Below are positions 40,111 to 44,578 of a DNA stretch of 64,000 bases, in pieces. The DNA comes from an uncultured Rivularia sp. (lineage in GTDB: Bacteria > Cyanobacteriota > Cyanobacteriia > Cyanobacteriales > Nostocaceae). Below the pieces are notes generated by a model. It did not search any database and was not told where the DNA came from. It saw only the letters and a program-made list of their open reading frames with translations. The position numbers and the translations under genes were made by a program. The stretch is from NCBI GenBank assembly GCA_963665115.1, contig OY762007.1, positions 4,928,001-4,992,000 of the forward strand, given 5' to 3'. Every line of letters begins with the position of its first letter. Position 1 is the first letter of the stretch.

Positions 40111-40417
40111 TTCGTAGTAAGGACTTTAGTCCCTCATCTCCAGATACCTGGCGATTGAATATGCTGCACCTATTGGTGAACGCGGCTACACAGGCAAAGT
40201 CCACCTTCGTGGACTAAATATTTAATGTTTATTGTAGGGTGTGTTATGGCGACGAAATGGTTGTAGGGAAACAGATATGTTAGTTAATGCCGTAACGCAC
40301 CGTCTTGTTTTAGCGAAGTAATCTTTTAATTTTACTAGGGCGTTAAAGTCCTGGCTACACAGGCAAATTTCATCTGTGTGGGCTGAAAATTCTATCGATT
40401 TAATTCGCTACGAGCGA

Positions 40418-40461
40418 ACTAAATTCACAATATTCCAAATTTATGGTATATTGAATTTAGT
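40418..40461 (+). promoter_or_regulatory. Sigma70-like promoter embedded in a palindrome (candidate operator) upstream of the retron leader
   Basis: TTCACA (40424-29), 17-nt spacer, TG-n-TATATT (40447-52); perfect inverted repeat ACTAAATTCA (40418-27)/TGAATTTAGT (40452-61). Confidence 0.55.
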
Positions 40462-40462
40462 C

Positions 40463-41076
40463 GGATAAAAGGAGATGTTTGCCATTTACTGGATTGCTTC
40501 GGCATTCCGTGGAAGATAGTTATATATCTTCTATCGTGTTTCTAATTTATCTATTTGAGAAACGTGTAATTCACGCGGGTTGCCACACTAGAGACTACTT
40601 AAAGACTCCAGGAAAGAAACCTCAATGAAATTATCATTGCACGATTCCTAGAAATGTTTAGTAAACATAGAACTGTAATTATTTCCCCTATGAGTACGTT
40701 GTTCTAGGTTACTAACTAAACTAAATTAGGAAAATGAATATGAATAGAAAACACTCAAGCGCAGCTTTAGCAAATTAGCTGCGTAGGTATGGGGAGGGTT
40801 AAAACTGCTGTTCTCCTGGTTTGTTTGAGGCAACACTTATTTGTGGAAACTTGAATAAGTGCAAACAAAACATATGCATGAGGTTTTTATGCAAGAAAAA
40901 TCCGATAAACAGCAGCAGCAATCGAAAAAGCGTAAATCAAAACGGTGGCTGAAATGGCTCCGTCAACCTCAAACGCTCCGTCTACTGTTACAACTTGGTA
41001 CAATCATTTTTAATATCTTAAAATGGTTGGTCGAACGTTCACATGGTTGATATAGATTGCTTACCTCCTTTTATCT
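40463..41076 (+). ncRNA. Putative retron msr-msd-like structured RNA that also contains a small ORF
   Basis: GATAAAAGGAG (40464-74) is the exact reverse complement of CTCCTTTTATC (41065-75); at least seven internal stems including a C(UUCG)G hairpin; directly upstream of the HTH-RT genes. Confidence 0.7.
40889..41050 (+). CDS. 53-aa basic/amphipathic small protein, candidate retron effector
   Basis: GAGG RBS at 40880-83, ATG 40889; MQEKSDKQQQQSKKRKSKRWLKWLRQPQTLRLLLQLGTIIFNILKWLVERSHG. Confidence 0.6.
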   Translation: MQEKSDKQQQQSKKRKSKRWLKWLRQPQTLRLLLQLGTIIFNILKWLVERSHG

Positions 41077-41116
41077 ATAAAACTCCTTAATATCCTCTGT
41101 TCAAAGGAGGTTAACA

Positions 41117-41425
41117 ATGTTAAATGAGGCTCTAAGATTAATTAGAGTATTCTACGATTTACCACAGAAGCAACTTGCAGAGAAATTAGGAATATCTAAA
41201 TCATATCTTTCAGAAATTGAGTCGGGAAAAAAGACTCCTACAATTGATTTGCTAAATCGTTACGCAGATTTTTTCGATATCCCAGCATCCTCAATTATGT
41301 TCTTTTCAGAAAGCTTAGAAAAGGATGCAAAAGTAGAAAAACTGAGAAGTTTTGTATCTTCTAAAATTATAGCTATTCTTAACTTTATTGCTGAAAGGTC
41401 TGGTAATTCTTATGCCGAAAAATAA
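41117..41425 (+). CDS. XRE/Cro-like helix-turn-helix protein associated with the retron RT
   Basis: LRLIR..LPQKQLAEKLGISKSYLSEIESGKKTP; strong AAGGAGG RBS; overlaps the RT start. Confidence 0.9.
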   Translation: MLNEALRLIRVFYDLPQKQLAEKLGISKSYLSEIESGKKTPTIDLLNRYADFFDIPASSIMFFSESLEKDAKVEKLRSFVSSKIIAILNFIAERSGNSYAEK

Positions 41426-42311
41426 GCATACAATATATGAATTAGATCAATCACCTTTTTACTGTTTGAAGTCTAAAGCGAAACTCGAAAAGCTTTTACT
41501 TATAACTAAAAGCAAACTTCAAATGCTTACTAAATCAGAAGATTTGTATCGCGAGAGTAATATTTATGGAAAAAATGGTAAACCTCGTCCCGTACAAAAA
41601 CCAAGACCTGATTTAAAAAGAGTTCAAAAGCGAATTGAAGAGCTTTTAAAACGAATAAAGCTTCCAAGTTATATATATGCTCCTGCGAGGGGGCTTTCCC
41701 ATATTAATAATGCTCAAGCTCATATAAATGCTGTAGTCCTAAGAACGCTTGATATTGAAAAATACTTTCCTTCTACACCATCAAGGCACGTTTATTCATT
41801 CTTCCACAAACGGATGAAATGTTCTCCAGATGTTGCTGGAATTTTAAATAAGATATTAACATTCAAAGGTTATTTACCAACTGGCAGTCCATCAAGTCCA
41901 ATTATTTCCTATTTTTCACATATTGATATGTGGGAATCAATATACGAAATTGTGAATCAAGCTAATTGTAATTTAGCTGTTTACATGGACGATGTAACTA
42001 TTTCAGGTGATGTTGTTCCTGACAAATTGATTTGGCAAATAAAGCAGCAGTTTTATAGCTGTGGATTGCGTAGTAATAAACAGAAAGAAAAATTTTACGT
42101 TGGCAAAAAGTCATCTGAAGTAACTGGAATCATTATCAAAGAAGGTAAGTTAAAGATTCCTAATCGTATACATTGGAAAATGTATAAGATTCGTCTAACT
42201 CTTCATTCAGAAACTCAGCCAAACAAACGTAAGAAGCTGATGCAACAATTGGAAAGTTTAAAGGCATATGAGCGACAAATTCTAATATCAAACTCTGCTT
42301 CATTAAATTGA
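41412..42311 (+). CDS. Retron-type reverse transcriptase (299 aa from ATG 41412)
   Basis: KPRPVQKP..LKRVQKRI, NAQAH (retron NAxxH), LDIEKYFPS, LPTGSPSSP, YMDD catalytic motif, VTG (region Y); no maturase or endonuclease extension. Confidence 0.9.
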   Translation: MPKNKHTIYELDQSPFYCLKSKAKLEKLLLITKSKLQMLTKSEDLYRESNIYGKNGKPRPVQKPRPDLKRVQKRIEELLKRIKLPSYIYAPARGLSHINNAQAHINAVVLRTLDIEKYFPSTPSRHVYSFFHKRMKCSPDVAGILNKILTFKGYLPTGSPSSPIISYFSHIDMWESIYEIVNQANCNLAVYMDDVTISGDVVPDKLIWQIKQQFYSCGLRSNKQKEKFYVGKKSSEVTGIIIKEGKLKIPNRIHWKMYKIRLTLHSETQPNKRKKLMQQLESLKAYERQILISNSASLN

Positions 42312-42364: not shown

Positions 42365-42592
42365 ATGAACACTTCTATCATTGACGAAGTAATTGAACAA
42401 CTCGGAACCATGCCGCAGCACTTACAATCGCAAGTACTAGATTTTGCTCGTAAACTTGTACAAAACGAAGTTAAAGGTACTCCTGGTTCGCAATTACTGC
42501 GTTTTGCAGGTTCTATTCCTGCTAATGACGTTAAATTAATGAGGGAAGCGATTGAACAAGACTGCGAACAGGTAGATGTCAATAAGTGGTAG
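42365..42592 (+). CDS. Putative antitoxin (DUF2281-like) of a PIN toxin-antitoxin pair
   Basis: 75 aa, MP..LQ.QVLDFAR.L..G..G..LLRFAG.I; overlaps the downstream PIN gene. Confidence 0.7.
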   Translation: MNTSIIDEVIEQLGTMPQHLQSQVLDFARKLVQNEVKGTPGSQLLRFAGSIPANDVKLMREAIEQDCEQVDVNKW

Positions 42593-42971
42593 GTTCTTGC
42601 TAGATACAAACATTATCATTGCTCTCTTTGCAGATGAAGAAGCAGTTAAAAATAAGCTTGCTCAAGCCAACGAAGTTTTTATTCCAAGCAATGCTATTGG
42701 TGAATTGTGTTACGGTGCTAGAAAATCGGGGCGAGTTCAGGCAAATCTAGCAAGAGTTGATGAATTGATTGCGAACAGTGCAGTGCTTGAATGTGATGCT
42801 GAAACTGCTCGGCAATACGGTGAAGTCAAAAACCAGTTAAGGTTAAAAGGTCGTCCGTTACCTGAGAATGACATTTGGATTGCAGCCGTTGCCTTACAGC
42901 ATAATTTAGTTTTGGTAACACGCGATGCTCATTTTCAGCAAGTTGAGAATTTGCAATCTGTCAATTGGTAA
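42576..42971 (+). CDS. vapC: VapC-family PIN-domain ribonuclease toxin
   Basis: LLDTNIII, GEL..GA, NDIWIAAVA, LVTRDAHF. Confidence 0.9.
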   Translation: MSISGRFLLDTNIIIALFADEEAVKNKLAQANEVFIPSNAIGELCYGARKSGRVQANLARVDELIANSAVLECDAETARQYGEVKNQLRLKGRPLPENDIWIAAVALQHNLVLVTRDAHFQQVENLQSVNW

Positions 42972-43189: not shown

Positions 43190-43783
43190 TTGAAACTAAT
43201 TTTAGTTGCCCCCGAATCATTATTAACAGCAGCTTTTCAACAACATTTCAATTATTTCCCTAACATCGAAATTGTTAACAACTACTTTGAATGGTTGCCT
43301 GTTTTCGATTGTTTAGTTAGCCCTGCAAATTCGTTTGGGATGATGGATGGTGGTATGGATGCAGCCATTATCAAGTTTTTTGGAGATTCCTTGATGGAAA
43401 AGGTGCAGCAGCGCATCCTTACAGATTATTTAGGAGAGCAACCTGTAGGAACATCAATGATTGTAGAAACAGGTAATCGTAAACATCCATTTCTCGCACA
43501 TACACCTACCATGCGGGTTCCCATGTCTATCGTAGGGACGGATGTTCCTTATGTAGCGATGTGGGCTATGCTTTTAGCAGTGCGTCGTCACAACCAATCT
43601 TCTCAGCATAAAATTAACACCGTTGCTTGTCCCGGTTTGGGTACGGGAATCGGTAGAATTGATTACGATGAAGCAGCCAGACAAATGGCTTTAGCTTACG
43701 ATAATTTTCTTTATCCCCCGAAGCATCTTAATTGTTTTGTTGCAGCTTCCAGACAACTTTTGATTTGGGAAGGTAATGGGTAA
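43190..43783 (+). CDS. Macrodomain (ADP-ribose binding/hydrolase) protein
   Basis: VSPANSFGMMDGGMDAAI, HTPTM, CPGLGTGIG; TTG start after GGAG. Confidence 0.87.
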   Translation: MKLILVAPESLLTAAFQQHFNYFPNIEIVNNYFEWLPVFDCLVSPANSFGMMDGGMDAAIIKFFGDSLMEKVQQRILTDYLGEQPVGTSMIVETGNRKHPFLAHTPTMRVPMSIVGTDVPYVAMWAMLLAVRRHNQSSQHKINTVACPGLGTGIGRIDYDEAARQMALAYDNFLYPPKHLNCFVAASRQLLIWEGNG

Positions 43784-43868: not shown

Positions 43869-44213
43869 TTATGGTTCTAACAATTTCTCCATCAGCGTAT
43901 AAATATCGTTTTTATCACCTTCTTTCCGTAAACCTATTCCTACTACTAAAACTATTATTTTCTCAAGTTCAACTTTGTAAATAATTCTGTAGCGTTGACC
44001 TACTGCTCTAAGACTGCGATAACCTAAAAGATAATCGACTAAAGCTTTACCTTGAAGAAGTGGATCTGTTTTTAACTTATTTATGCGTTGGCTCAAGCCT
44101 TTTCGATGACGCTTATCTTTAATACCGCTTAACATTTCTAATGCTAGCGGTGTCAGTTGAATTTCATACTCGGTATTAGCGGGCTGATTTGTATCTGAGT
44201 CCAACTTATTCAA
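43869..44213 (-). CDS. RelE/ParE family toxin
   Basis: YEIQLTP.A...L, GKAL...L.GYRSLRAVGQRYRIIY.V....VLVVGIG.R. Confidence 0.87.
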   Translation of the reverse strand: MNKLDSDTNQPANTEYEIQLTPLALEMLSGIKDKRHRKGLSQRINKLKTDPLLQGKALVDYLLGYRSLRAVGQRYRIIYKVELEKIIVLVVGIGLRKEGDKNDIYTLMEKLLEP

Positions 44214-44311
44214 ACTTCCCTAAAATTCAAGCACCTTACAATTAGAAATGTACATTAAAGTGTACATTTGTAGAAGCAGTATGGGAAAGTCCAAAAATAT
44301 ACTTACTAGAT

Positions 44312-44578
44312 TTATTCAAGTCCAAGTTTAGCTTTTGCTTCCTCCCAAGTTATAGTTTCTCCTCTTTGAGCCTGCTGAATACTTTCTTGCAACTGTTTGC
44401 TGAATTTTTTATCGGAAAGAATAGCTAAAGTTTCCATCATAGATTCAAATTTTTCAAAGCTAAGTGCTGCCATTACTGGCTTACCATGCTTAGTAATAAT
44501 TACTGCATCGTCTTTCAACTCATCGGGCAAATTTAATAACTGCTGTCTAGCTTCTGTAATAGTTAGATACTTAGGCAT
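44312..44578 (-). CDS. Phd/YefM family antitoxin
   Basis: TITEARQQL..L, VIITKHGKPV, FESMMETL.IL. Confidence 0.9.
   Translation of the reverse strand: MPKYLTITEARQQLLNLPDELKDDAVIITKHGKPVMAALSFEKFESMMETLAILSDKKFSKQLQESIQQAQRGETITWEEAKAKLGLE

Follow-up and report, generated by a model that had tools for sequence, protein, structure and literature searches.

An open reading frame for a reverse transcriptase (RT) in a cyanobacterium, overlapped by a gene for a helix–turn–helix (HTH) protein and preceded by a hairpin-rich leader, raises two questions, namely to what kind of system these genes belong and what serves as its effector. The locus lies in a stretch of 64,000 nucleotides from an uncultured Rivularia sp. 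(hereafter the window, whose numbering we use throughout). A sequence-only reading had taken it for an intact type VI-like retron in which the RNA itself codes for a peptide effector, with an implied claim to high novelty.

Family assignment of the locus

Judged by its sequence, the locus is a type VI retron with the gene order RNA–SP–HTH–RT (SP, small protein), a family that is already known. The RT (299 aa, 41412–42311, + strand) scores 302 bits against the PADLOC model RT_VI, compared with 149 for the next model, 99 for RT_V, and 74 for RT_IV, and the top 25 of its 39 PADLOC matches are retron models. The second protein, an XRE/Cro-C1 HTH protein of 102 aa (41117–41425, + strand), scores 122 bits against HTH_VI and 36 against the next model, placing both best matches far above other models. 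NAQAH (41709), YMDD (41982), and VTG (42120) motifs are present in the RT and correspond to the retron hallmarks, that is, NAxxH in region X, the catalytic YxDD, and VTG in region Y (PMC7736814); departures from near-invariant columns number two in this RT and range from 0 to 7 in 55 relatives. The best PDB matches of the RT are the retron RTs Ec86 and Ec67. In a quick tree built without type IV/V references, without non-retron RTs, and without RT fragments of <170 aa, the window RT falls inside a type VI clade of 58 rows (SH-aLRT 99), and 11 rows form a separate clade. Type VI retrons are recognized by a clade 3 RT, a Cro/C1 HTH protein of 91–110 aa encoded upstream of or overlapping the RT gene, and a small protein encoded upstream of the HTH gene; the window has an RT of this group, an HTH protein of 102 aa whose gene overlaps the RT gene by 14 nt, and a 53-aa SP upstream of the HTH gene.

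The RT_VI and HTH_VI profiles, together with the leader, SP, and HTH shared by relatives, bear out the type VI-like reading. Two outcomes that would have spoken against it, an RT clustering with non-retron clades and homologs lacking the leader and HTH, were not encountered: the three NCBIfam families matched by the RT are all retron families, each below its cut-off, and the relatives retain leader, SP, and HTH. As had been observed, the RT has no large effector fused to it or encoded beside it, and the next genes encode a VapBC-like pair. The proposed peptide effector within the RNA is supported as well and matches the published type VI architecture (bioRxiv 10.1101/2025.10.22.683967; bioRxiv 10.64898/2026.04.27.721009); the implied novelty finds no support. 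We therefore regard the discovery value of the locus as modest, given that it is a cyanobacterial addition to a family whose mechanism appeared in 2025–2026.

The structured RNA and the embedded small protein

The leader (40459–41085) folds with a z score of −5.2, and none of 20 shuffles is equally stable. From the fold and from covariation, we predict a hybrid RNA of about 620 nt with putative boundaries (40459–41080, + strand), composed of an msr-msd portion, a riboregulator, the SP coding region, and a 3' tail. Rfam returned 10 matches up to an E value of 5, none of which reaches its gathering score. The RNA helices covary among relatives, as the sequence-only reading had suggested checking: six helices are 86–100% paired with 2–5 compensatory pairs each, outperforming each of 500 shuffles and of six slides. 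The reading was right that the leader is folded, contains a small open reading frame, and carries an exact 11-bp inverted repeat (40464–40474 with 41065–41075, + strand), but this repeat is not the conserved closing pairing. It is perfect in this copy only; by eye, the closest kin keep 10 of its 11 positions, and in an alignment of 18 relatives 69% of its cells are paired, below the range of the six helices. The pairing of an arm at 40784–40800 (+ strand) with the same 3' tail, downstream of the SP stop (about 41061–41077), is better conserved; it covaries, and its duplex amounts to 16.2 kcal/mol within a locus versus 10.9 with other loci (0 of 20,000 permutations).

The remaining elements, all on the + strand, follow one another from the 5' end. 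A TTGCC segment (40479–40483) forms an "anti-repeat" that is complementary to both of two direct repeats, with covariation across 19 representatives. Two conserved msr-like hairpins (40488–40533) correspond to RNAalifold helices in columns 255–302 that show compensatory changes. The variable msd-like domain (40536–40754), which aligns poorly among relatives and is long in this copy, is the predicted RT template; the predicted template span is 248 nt in the window, 96–266 nt in the cyanobacterial clade, and 49–109 nt in other loci. The covarying msd terminal hairpin (40759–40784), which would form the 5' stem-loop of the msDNA, carries repeat 1 in its loop (AGCAA, 40769–40773). Beyond the long-range arm lies a covarying riboregulator (40805–40860), which is composed of a helix between 40805–40812 and SP codons at 40908–40915, an anti-Shine–Dalgarno (anti-SD) CTCC at 40813–40816, repeat 2 (GGCAA, 40829–40833), and a hairpin at 40835–40860.

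The helix joining the leader to the SP coding region is 98.6% paired, with compensatory changes in four of its eight pairs, and in 8 of 18 loci such a change alters an SP codon. The SP start codon is fully paired and the SD partly paired in the folding ensemble; the pairing of anti-SD with SD was read by eye from the fold. The direct repeats covary, with a shared word of 6.0 nt within a locus versus 4.1 nt between loci (0 of 20,000 permutations), a comparison that involves 19 representatives of <55% RT identity, among which kin are not independent, with 19 landmarks set by hand and a pattern noticed by eye before the test windows were fixed. The set had first been cleared of exact duplicates and of short-flanked loci, and L001 was excluded because a neighboring stem had been picked automatically in place of its hairpin. 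The anti-repeat is paired with repeat 2 in 100% of cells of alignment A3, scoring 14.7 at its own locus, 11.1 between loci, and 9.6 in own-composition shuffles, and of 19 loci, 12 show a closer fit to repeat 2 than to repeat 1, one shows a poorer fit, and six show a tie. An RNA that encloses the SP, a buried start codon, tail pairing, and covarying direct repeats are the features by which a type VI hyRNA of the Vpa2 kind is recognized, and all are found here.

The SP itself (53 aa, 40889–41050, + strand; ribosome-binding site GAGG at 40880–40883) is a basic amphipathic protein with a net charge of +10 and a hydrophobic moment of 0.56; it is conserved in relatives and is the predicted toxic effector. 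It is 58–79% identical to six cyanobacterial SPs and 19–23% identical to two proteobacterial SPs. Neither the window SP nor those of four clade-mates match the PADLOC SP_VI models (0 of 5), compared with five of six SPs in the separate 11-row clade; the clusters modeled in PADLOC are of the cl2075/2760/3272 type, and the loci that match SP_VI form a separate clade. A GTG-extended form of the SP (63 aa) and a 49-aa open reading frame at 40479 were rejected, as both are unconserved in relatives.

A candidate operator upstream of the predicted promoter

The unit had been thought to start at 40418; it begins instead upstream, at a palindrome, TTCGC-N5-GCGAA (40404–40418, no strand assigned), that is likely the operator of the HTH protein, judging from its conservation, its rarity, and its association with the recognition helix. 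It occurs once in the 64-kb window (0.02 expected) and three times in the host genome (about seven expected). In a survey of 47 related loci, drawn up without exact duplicates or short-flanked loci, it is present with at most two mismatches in 38, across phyla, and its spacer is fixed at 5 nt (spacers of 3, 4, 6, and 7 nt occur in 1, 1, 2, and 0 of the 47). All 38 are among the 43 loci with an intact HTH recognition helix, compared with none of the four in which the helix has decayed, the joint loss of palindrome and helix representing a single evolutionary event. A prediction about the palindrome written in advance was correct in seven of seven new loci, and alignment A3 shows no compensatory change within it (18 loci).

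The palindrome lies just upstream of the −35 and −10 boxes of a predicted sigma-70 promoter (40424–40452, + strand), with TTCACA (40424–40429) and the extended −10 box TGnTATATT (40444–40452) in the arrangement TTCACA-17-TGnTATATT. This is the best of seven sites scanned; since seven is no more than expected by chance, the call rests on conservation, the TGnTAnnnT box being conserved in alignment A3. Transcription is predicted to start near 40459. Two spacing modes, of about 18–22 and 27–31 nt, occur among the surveyed loci and are suggestive only, given that −10 assignments are unreliable in GC-rich promoters. A second palindrome-type site overlaps the −35 box in L103 and L107 and is partial in the window; tallies from this comparison are disregarded, as tied, wrong sites were chosen in four rows (L007, L047, L057, and L059). 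The predicted RNAs of Aeromonas and Escherichia coli members span 454–471 nt, close to the 470 nt measured for Retron-Vpa2, which places the palindrome outside the RNA. The hairpin at 40418–40461, once read as an RNA element, covers the predicted promoter and is probably outside the RNA as well. We rejected it as a conserved element, as it is strong only in the window (z −5.4) among 30 loci folded; two other loci reach z of about −2.5 in this region, with different stems.

A palindromic site that goes with the recognition helix and sits beside the promoter of the regulator itself is also the mark of the controller proteins of restriction–modification systems, which likewise are XRE-type HTH proteins co-transcribed with a toxic gene. 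C.BclI is among five PDB matches of the window HTH, although weak (E 3.3e-7), and the match to Control_protein is also weak (E 8.7e-6); residues R7, Q17, S32, E33, and E35 are conserved. The C-box of C.PvuII reads GACT-N3-AGTC, and its downstream half-site and the −35 box overlap (PMC2175313), whereas the core in the window is CGCT-N3-AGCG. The sister lineage, whose SPs match SP_VI, mostly has TTGAC-N5-GTCAA (at most one mismatch in 6 of 10 loci), with GACT-N3-AGTC as in the C-box. The candidate operator differs from controller sites in a period of 20 bp rather than 15 and in usually consisting of one full site. Mestre et al. describe the type VI HTH as "potentially targeting transcriptional regulation" (PMC7736814). 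The main text of Zhang et al. (bioRxiv 10.1101/2025.10.22.683967) mentions neither the palindrome nor the 5' anti-repeat, and both are undescribed in the type VI literature examined, the supplements of which may include the anti-repeat and cyanobacterial entries.

Proposed mechanism and its alternatives

The closest likeness is to Retron-Vpa2/Retron-Eco12 of the "Large" lineage (bioRxiv 10.1101/2025.10.22.683967), which share with the window the order RNA–SP–HTH–RT, an RNA-embedded SP of about 55 aa, a three-arm layout in which the tail pairs back to the first arm and the start codon is buried, direct repeats that lie in the loops of the msd and of the riboregulator, and Arg7 in the HTH. They differ in an RNA of 470 nt (predicted about 620 in the window), an msDNA of 86 nt (predicted about 250), and YADD in place of YMDD, and the window host has no recC that we could find. 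SPs of the "Large" lineage lie outside the named clusters, and Vibrio parahaemolyticus RTs match the Aeromonas/E. coli subclade of our tree. The Vpa2 RT itself is absent from the tree and its accession (WP_069548583) from the 31 listed members of three Vibrio clusters; a place of the window in the "Large" lineage is therefore tentative, drawn from the size of the SP, the layout of the RNA, and other RTs of V. parahaemolyticus. Retron-Sen3 (cl2075; bioRxiv 10.64898/2026.04.27.721009) has the same gene order, an SP coding region embedded in structured RNA, and long-range pairing to a tail past the SP stop, but a 79-aa SP of another cluster, constitutive msDNA, and post-translational control. Canonical retrons (Ec86/Eco1) share the RT family with its NAxxH and VTG motifs; they have a large enzymatic effector, absent here, and in the window system the msDNA would activate the toxin rather than restrain it.

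From the observed gene set, family assignment, and covarying helices, we consider it probable that the locus works as a Vpa2-like type VI retron whose RNA hides the toxin start until reverse transcription is triggered by phage. The RNA, starting near 40459, would bind the RT and the HTH protein, the latter restraining reverse transcription as in Vpa2. The leader would pair with SP codons 7–9 and the SP ribosome site, and the tail beyond the SP stop with 40784–40800, beside the predicted template start. Upon infection, the RT would copy from about 40790 back to about 40536. In the resulting msDNA (about 250 nt), the 5' loop is predicted to complement repeat 2 and to match the 5' TTGCC segment almost exactly. 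Competition of this loop with the TTGCC segment for repeat 2 would open the riboregulator, and the SP, a basic amphipathic helix, would arrest growth, the membrane being a guess as to its target. Release of SP translation by msDNA is likely, given that the helices covary in the layout published for Retron-Vpa2.

Three extensions of this model, taken together, we judge about evenly balanced between right and wrong. The HTH protein likely also binds the palindrome, as a dimer, and thereby regulates the operon that encodes it. Activation is the more likely mode, as in controller proteins, which activate and then repress transcription; this second role would tie the output of toxin-bearing RNA to the HTH level. 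The switch would be an exchange among three strands, with the msDNA loop prevailing over a 5' RNA segment that has the same sequence. Both studied systems, Vpa2 and Sen3, respond to Red or RecBCD perturbation (bioRxiv 10.1101/2025.10.22.683967; bioRxiv 10.64898/2026.04.27.721009); since the search of the host genome turned up no recC, the trigger in cyanobacteria without RecBCD may differ.

It is quite unlikely that the SP is instead made constitutively and restrained by contact with the HTH, with constitutive msDNA and the RNA as a scaffold rather than a switch. Such control has been demonstrated for Retron-Sen3 (bioRxiv 10.64898/2026.04.27.721009), the C-terminal half of the window HTH is conserved, and the SP moment is nearer to that of Sen3 (about 0.6) than of Vpa2 (0.3–0.4), on scales that may differ; however, the window belongs to the 58-row clade of short SPs, of which none of five matches SP_VI, its SP start codon is paired, and its repeats covary. 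We also think it unlikely that the family is as described and the window copy weakened or decaying. Relative to the closest kin, repeat 1 has changed from GGCAA to AGCAA, the SP ribosome site is shortened by 4 nt, and the RT carries Q253I and G282S; the SP tail reads ERSHG where kin have EFLQD or ELLQD, with the lowest tail hydrophobicity of 13, and the RT is interrupted in the orthologous copy of G010. "Intact" aptly describes the reading frames, all three of which are open with catalytic motifs preserved, and is less apt for repeat 1 and for the ribosome site and tail of the SP; against decay, the number of RT departures is typical for relatives, operator, promoter, and helices are retained, and the repeat 1 change, common to L016, still permits a wobble pair.

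The palindrome might instead serve a host factor, or it might form a hairpin in RNA that resembles the 18-nt Sen3 stem-loop, which is essential and precedes the 5' repeat (bioRxiv 10.64898/2026.04.27.721009), and there is a slight pairing tendency around the −10 box (76% of alignment cells). We give this little credence: the palindrome travels with the retron across phyla while being rare in the host genome, has a fixed spacer and lacks compensatory change, lies upstream of the −35 and −10 boxes, and is absent from the loci with a decayed recognition helix. A distinct hairpin downstream of the −10 box in L068 (by eye) fits the Sen3 stem-loop better. A selfish cassette that kills cells losing it, rather than a defense system, would suit the patchy distribution (a match at E ≤ 1e-30 in one of 26 genomes of the genus) and the many relatives on plasmids and prophages; this is very improbable in view of phage defense by Vpa2, Eco12, and Sen3, the lack of toxicity of RT-dead Vpa2, and the alternation of the retron with methylase genes at the same site.

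If real, the candidate operator would supply the type VI HTH with a DNA target, could explain how a toxin-bearing cassette is safely established in a new host, and would affect the interpretation of HTH mutants under native promoters. The covarying 5' anti-repeat pinpoints bases for the riboregulator question left open by Zhang et al. (bioRxiv 10.1101/2025.10.22.683967), and a host in which no recC is found would allow RecBCD sensing to be separated from msDNA stabilization by phage annealing proteins.

The insertion site is a hotspot that is also occupied by methylase genes of restriction–modification systems. We rejected the VapBC pair (42365–42971) as part of the retron: a VapB-like gene directly follows the RT in 4 of 16 loci of the cyanobacterial clade, the window included and some of them with short flanks, and in L101 a VapB-like gene is found at the same site without a retron. 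Viral contigs yielded no relative with either query, and 17 records of an annotated phage collection contain a match.

Assignment to the type VI retrons

The locus genuinely belongs among the type VI retrons and is a new representative of this system, which is already known; what it adds is modest and testable, namely a candidate operator, an anti-repeat, and a host without detectable recC. The reverse transcriptase (RT; 41412–42311, 299 aa, with NAQAH, YMDD, and VTG motifs) and the 102-aa HTH gene that overlaps it by 14 nt (41117–41425), both on the forward strand, are as the sequence-only reading described them, and the small ORF placed inside the leader most likely begins at ATG 40889 after GAGG, yielding the 53-aa form of the small protein (SP; 40889–41050, forward strand) that is kept in relatives. 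The proposal of a type VI retron with an RNA-embedded peptide was borne out when PADLOC and an RT tree were run as checks: the best models are RT_VI for the RT (302 bits; runner-up 149) and HTH_VI for the HTH (122 bits; runner-up 36), and the SP is conserved. NCBIfam returned retron families only for the RT, every one below cut-off, and the closest solved structures are retron RTs.

A tree of 76 RTs, built by a quick maximum-likelihood method (SH-aLRT support only, midpoint root, types XI and XIII as the sole non-VI rows), places the RT inside a 58-row clade (support 99), nested in a 19-row group (support 97); those members of the group that have a name or a classification are cyanobacteria. 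None of five SPs tested from the 58-row clade matches the SP_VI models; five of six tested from a separate 11-row type VI clade do. The absence of such matches fits the "Large" lineage, which is reported to include Retron-Vpa2 (Garcia-Rodriguez et al. 2026, bioRxiv 10.64898/2026.04.27.721009). Vibrio parahaemolyticus RTs match an Aeromonas/E. coli subclade of the tree, and the Vpa2 accession itself was not found, so the placement in the Vpa2 lineage is indirect. Five loci from a small-genome family of the same phylum (L025–L029) form their own branch (support 100) and are possibly a type VI variant judging from their genes: RT_VI is the best model for all four RTs scanned, the XRE HTH and the palindrome discussed below are missing, and the upstream gene encodes a roughly 70–80-aa protein, excisionase-like by eye. 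At another locus, L075, an SP-like ORF immediately precedes the type VI-like RT, and no HTH was detected.

A candidate operator upstream of the predicted promoter

The palindrome TTCGC-N5-GCGAA occurs once in the window (40404–40418), directly 5' of the −35/−10 boxes. The 8.7-Mb genome holds three copies against about seven expected, and it is thus not a common host site. Of 47 loci drawn from cyanobacteria, alphaproteobacteria, and gammaproteobacteria, 29 carry the palindrome with no more than one mismatch and 38 with no more than two, and spacers of 3, 4, 6, and 7 nt give 1, 1, 2, and 0 sites. More distant loci carry symmetric variants (ATCGC..GCGAT, TACGC..GCGTA) and, unlike the RNA helices, the palindrome shows no compensatory pair in an 18-locus cyanobacterial alignment. 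We consider it likely that the HTH binds the palindrome as its operator. Four E. coli loci lack the palindrome, and in their HTH the conserved recognition residues (Q and SxSxxSE) are gone; another five loci, in which the helix is intact, reach no better than three mismatches. The prediction that the site goes together with an intact helix was fixed in writing before seven new loci were read, and it held in all seven: the six whose helix is intact all have the site (exact in five, a symmetric variant with two mismatches in the other; 28–32 nt from palindrome to −10 box by eye), and the seventh, whose helix has decayed, does not. Because that locus is related to the E. coli set, the loss counts as a single event.

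In general, a site just 5' of −35 is suited to an activator, and we give even weight to the HTH activating, or not activating, through the palindrome. In Pasteurella phage Pmp14 one palindrome lies 5' of −35 and another right after −10, a position that would suit repression. In the E. coli and Klebsiella type VI retrons L060–L064 and L105, most of them in a P2-like prophage setting, the recognition helix has decayed and the palindrome is absent, which suggests that these retrons can do without DNA binding while retaining the HTH protein. The other type VI clade has TTGAC-N5-GTCAA with at most one mismatch in 6 of 10 loci, counted without a spacer control; the C-box GACT-N3-AGTC given for C.PvuII (PMC2175313) equals its core. 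At title level, our literature search returned no paper on an operator or controller-type HTH in type VI retrons, or on a cyanobacterial type VI retron, and "cyanobact", "operator", and "palindrom" are absent from the main texts of Zhang et al. and Garcia-Rodriguez et al.

Leader RNA, repeats, and mode of control

The leader was rightly called hairpin-rich: it folds more stably than all 20 shuffles (z = −5.2), and in a covariation check on 18 aligned loci of the cyanobacterial clade RNAalifold gave 71 pairs, 35 with compensatory change. Six named helices are 86–100% paired with two to five compensatory pairs each, and the seven-helix set that includes the palindrome outscores each of 500 shuffles and each of six slides. 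Leader positions 40805–40812 pair with SP codons 40908–40915 in one helix, the two sides of which co-change in 8 of 18 loci despite the altered amino acid, and the SP start codon is paired in the predicted ensemble. An alignment-free test on 19 representatives (<55% RT identity) scored this helix at 17.3 own-locus versus 12.6 cross-locus, the middle arm (40784–40800) with the tail at 16.2 versus 10.9, and the 5' arm with the tail at 10.0 versus 8.5. The 11-bp inverted repeat said to close the leader is exact (40464–40474/41065–41075) but is the weaker conserved pairing, because its margin is smaller than that of middle arm and tail; in the window copy the two are near-equal in energy (18.8 and 17.2 kcal/mol). 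The 40418–40461 hairpin is probably not a leader element, being strong in the window alone among 30 loci and overlying the predicted promoter.

The last msd hairpin loop (repeat 1, 40769–40773) and the riboregulator loop (repeat 2, 40829–40833) have a common word that co-changes across loci (GGCAA, GGCGA, GGTGA, GATGGC, GACGAC, and others). The shared word is 6.0 nt within and 4.1 nt between loci (0 of 20,000 permutations), in a test whose windows were fixed after the pattern was spotted, with 19 hand-set landmarks, one locus dropped, and non-independent kin. A 5' segment, TTGCC (40479–40483), is complementary to the word and co-changes with it. Subject to the same limits, this anti-repeat scores 14.7 own-locus versus 11.1 cross-locus against repeat 2 (own-composition shuffles 9.6) and 12.8 versus 10.5 against repeat 1 (shuffles 9.8). 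Repeat 2 is the better partner in 12 of the 19 representatives and repeat 1 in one; over 40 loci the counts are 17 and 6, with 17 ties. Since an msDNA copy of repeat 1 would carry the anti-repeat sequence, the two would probably compete for repeat 2.

In Retron-Vpa2, as reported by Zhang et al. (2025, bioRxiv 10.1101/2025.10.22.683967), the SP coding region lies within a 470-nt RNA, the HTH represses reverse transcription, SP translation is released only with msDNA, and 7-nt direct repeats are proposed to mediate this release. The repeat covariation supports that proposal, and we lean toward a Vpa2-like mode of control for the window retron; control like that of Retron-Sen3, described as differing from Vpa2 and post-translational (Garcia-Rodriguez et al. 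2026), seems unlikely here. The copy in the window appears intact. It does differ from its closest kin in an altered repeat 1, a shortened SP ribosome site, and a polar SP tail, and the RT of its orthologue in another genome (G010) is interrupted; these private changes and the interrupted RT would allow for a weakened copy, which we regard as unlikely.

Distribution, host, and gene neighborhood

One of 26 same-genus genomes carries the RT (E ≤ 1e-30), as do 16 of 401 genomes across the phylum, window counted (E ≤ 1e-40); five of these 16 are without the type VI HTH. A search for recC and recB in the 99.9% complete host genome found no recC with two models, both positive in E. coli, and placed recB below cut-off; recC exceeded the cut-off in none of five other carrier genomes. 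Among cyanobacteria, recC is reported mostly from marine picocyanobacteria (PMC5101192).

With the upstream gene as site marker, 22 same-genus loci matched and 13 were fetched: two hold the retron, four a gene with a common N-terminus (the one scanned is an Eco57I-type methylase), one a VapB-like gene without retron, one is empty, and five hold other genes, which fits a defense hotspot. Within the genus, methylase genes are alternative occupants of the site. In the window, a VapBC-like pair (42365–42971), a macro-domain gene (43190–43783), and a second toxin–antitoxin pair, RelE/Phd-like by eye (43869–44578), follow the retron, and a short dispersed repeat with about 24 genomic copies (40184–40222 and 40353–40391) flanks this variable site on its left side, outside the retron. 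A 247–255-aa gene, nuclease-like by eye and without Pfam match at E 0.001 in both copies scanned, sits immediately 3' of the RT at 5 of 16 loci in the cyanobacterial clade (L004, L006, L012/L049, L015, L036) and behind an RT remnant in L009; it may be an accessory gene. On three alphaproteobacterial plasmids (L050, L055, L056), an annotated TIR-domain gene lies directly 3' of the type VI RT.
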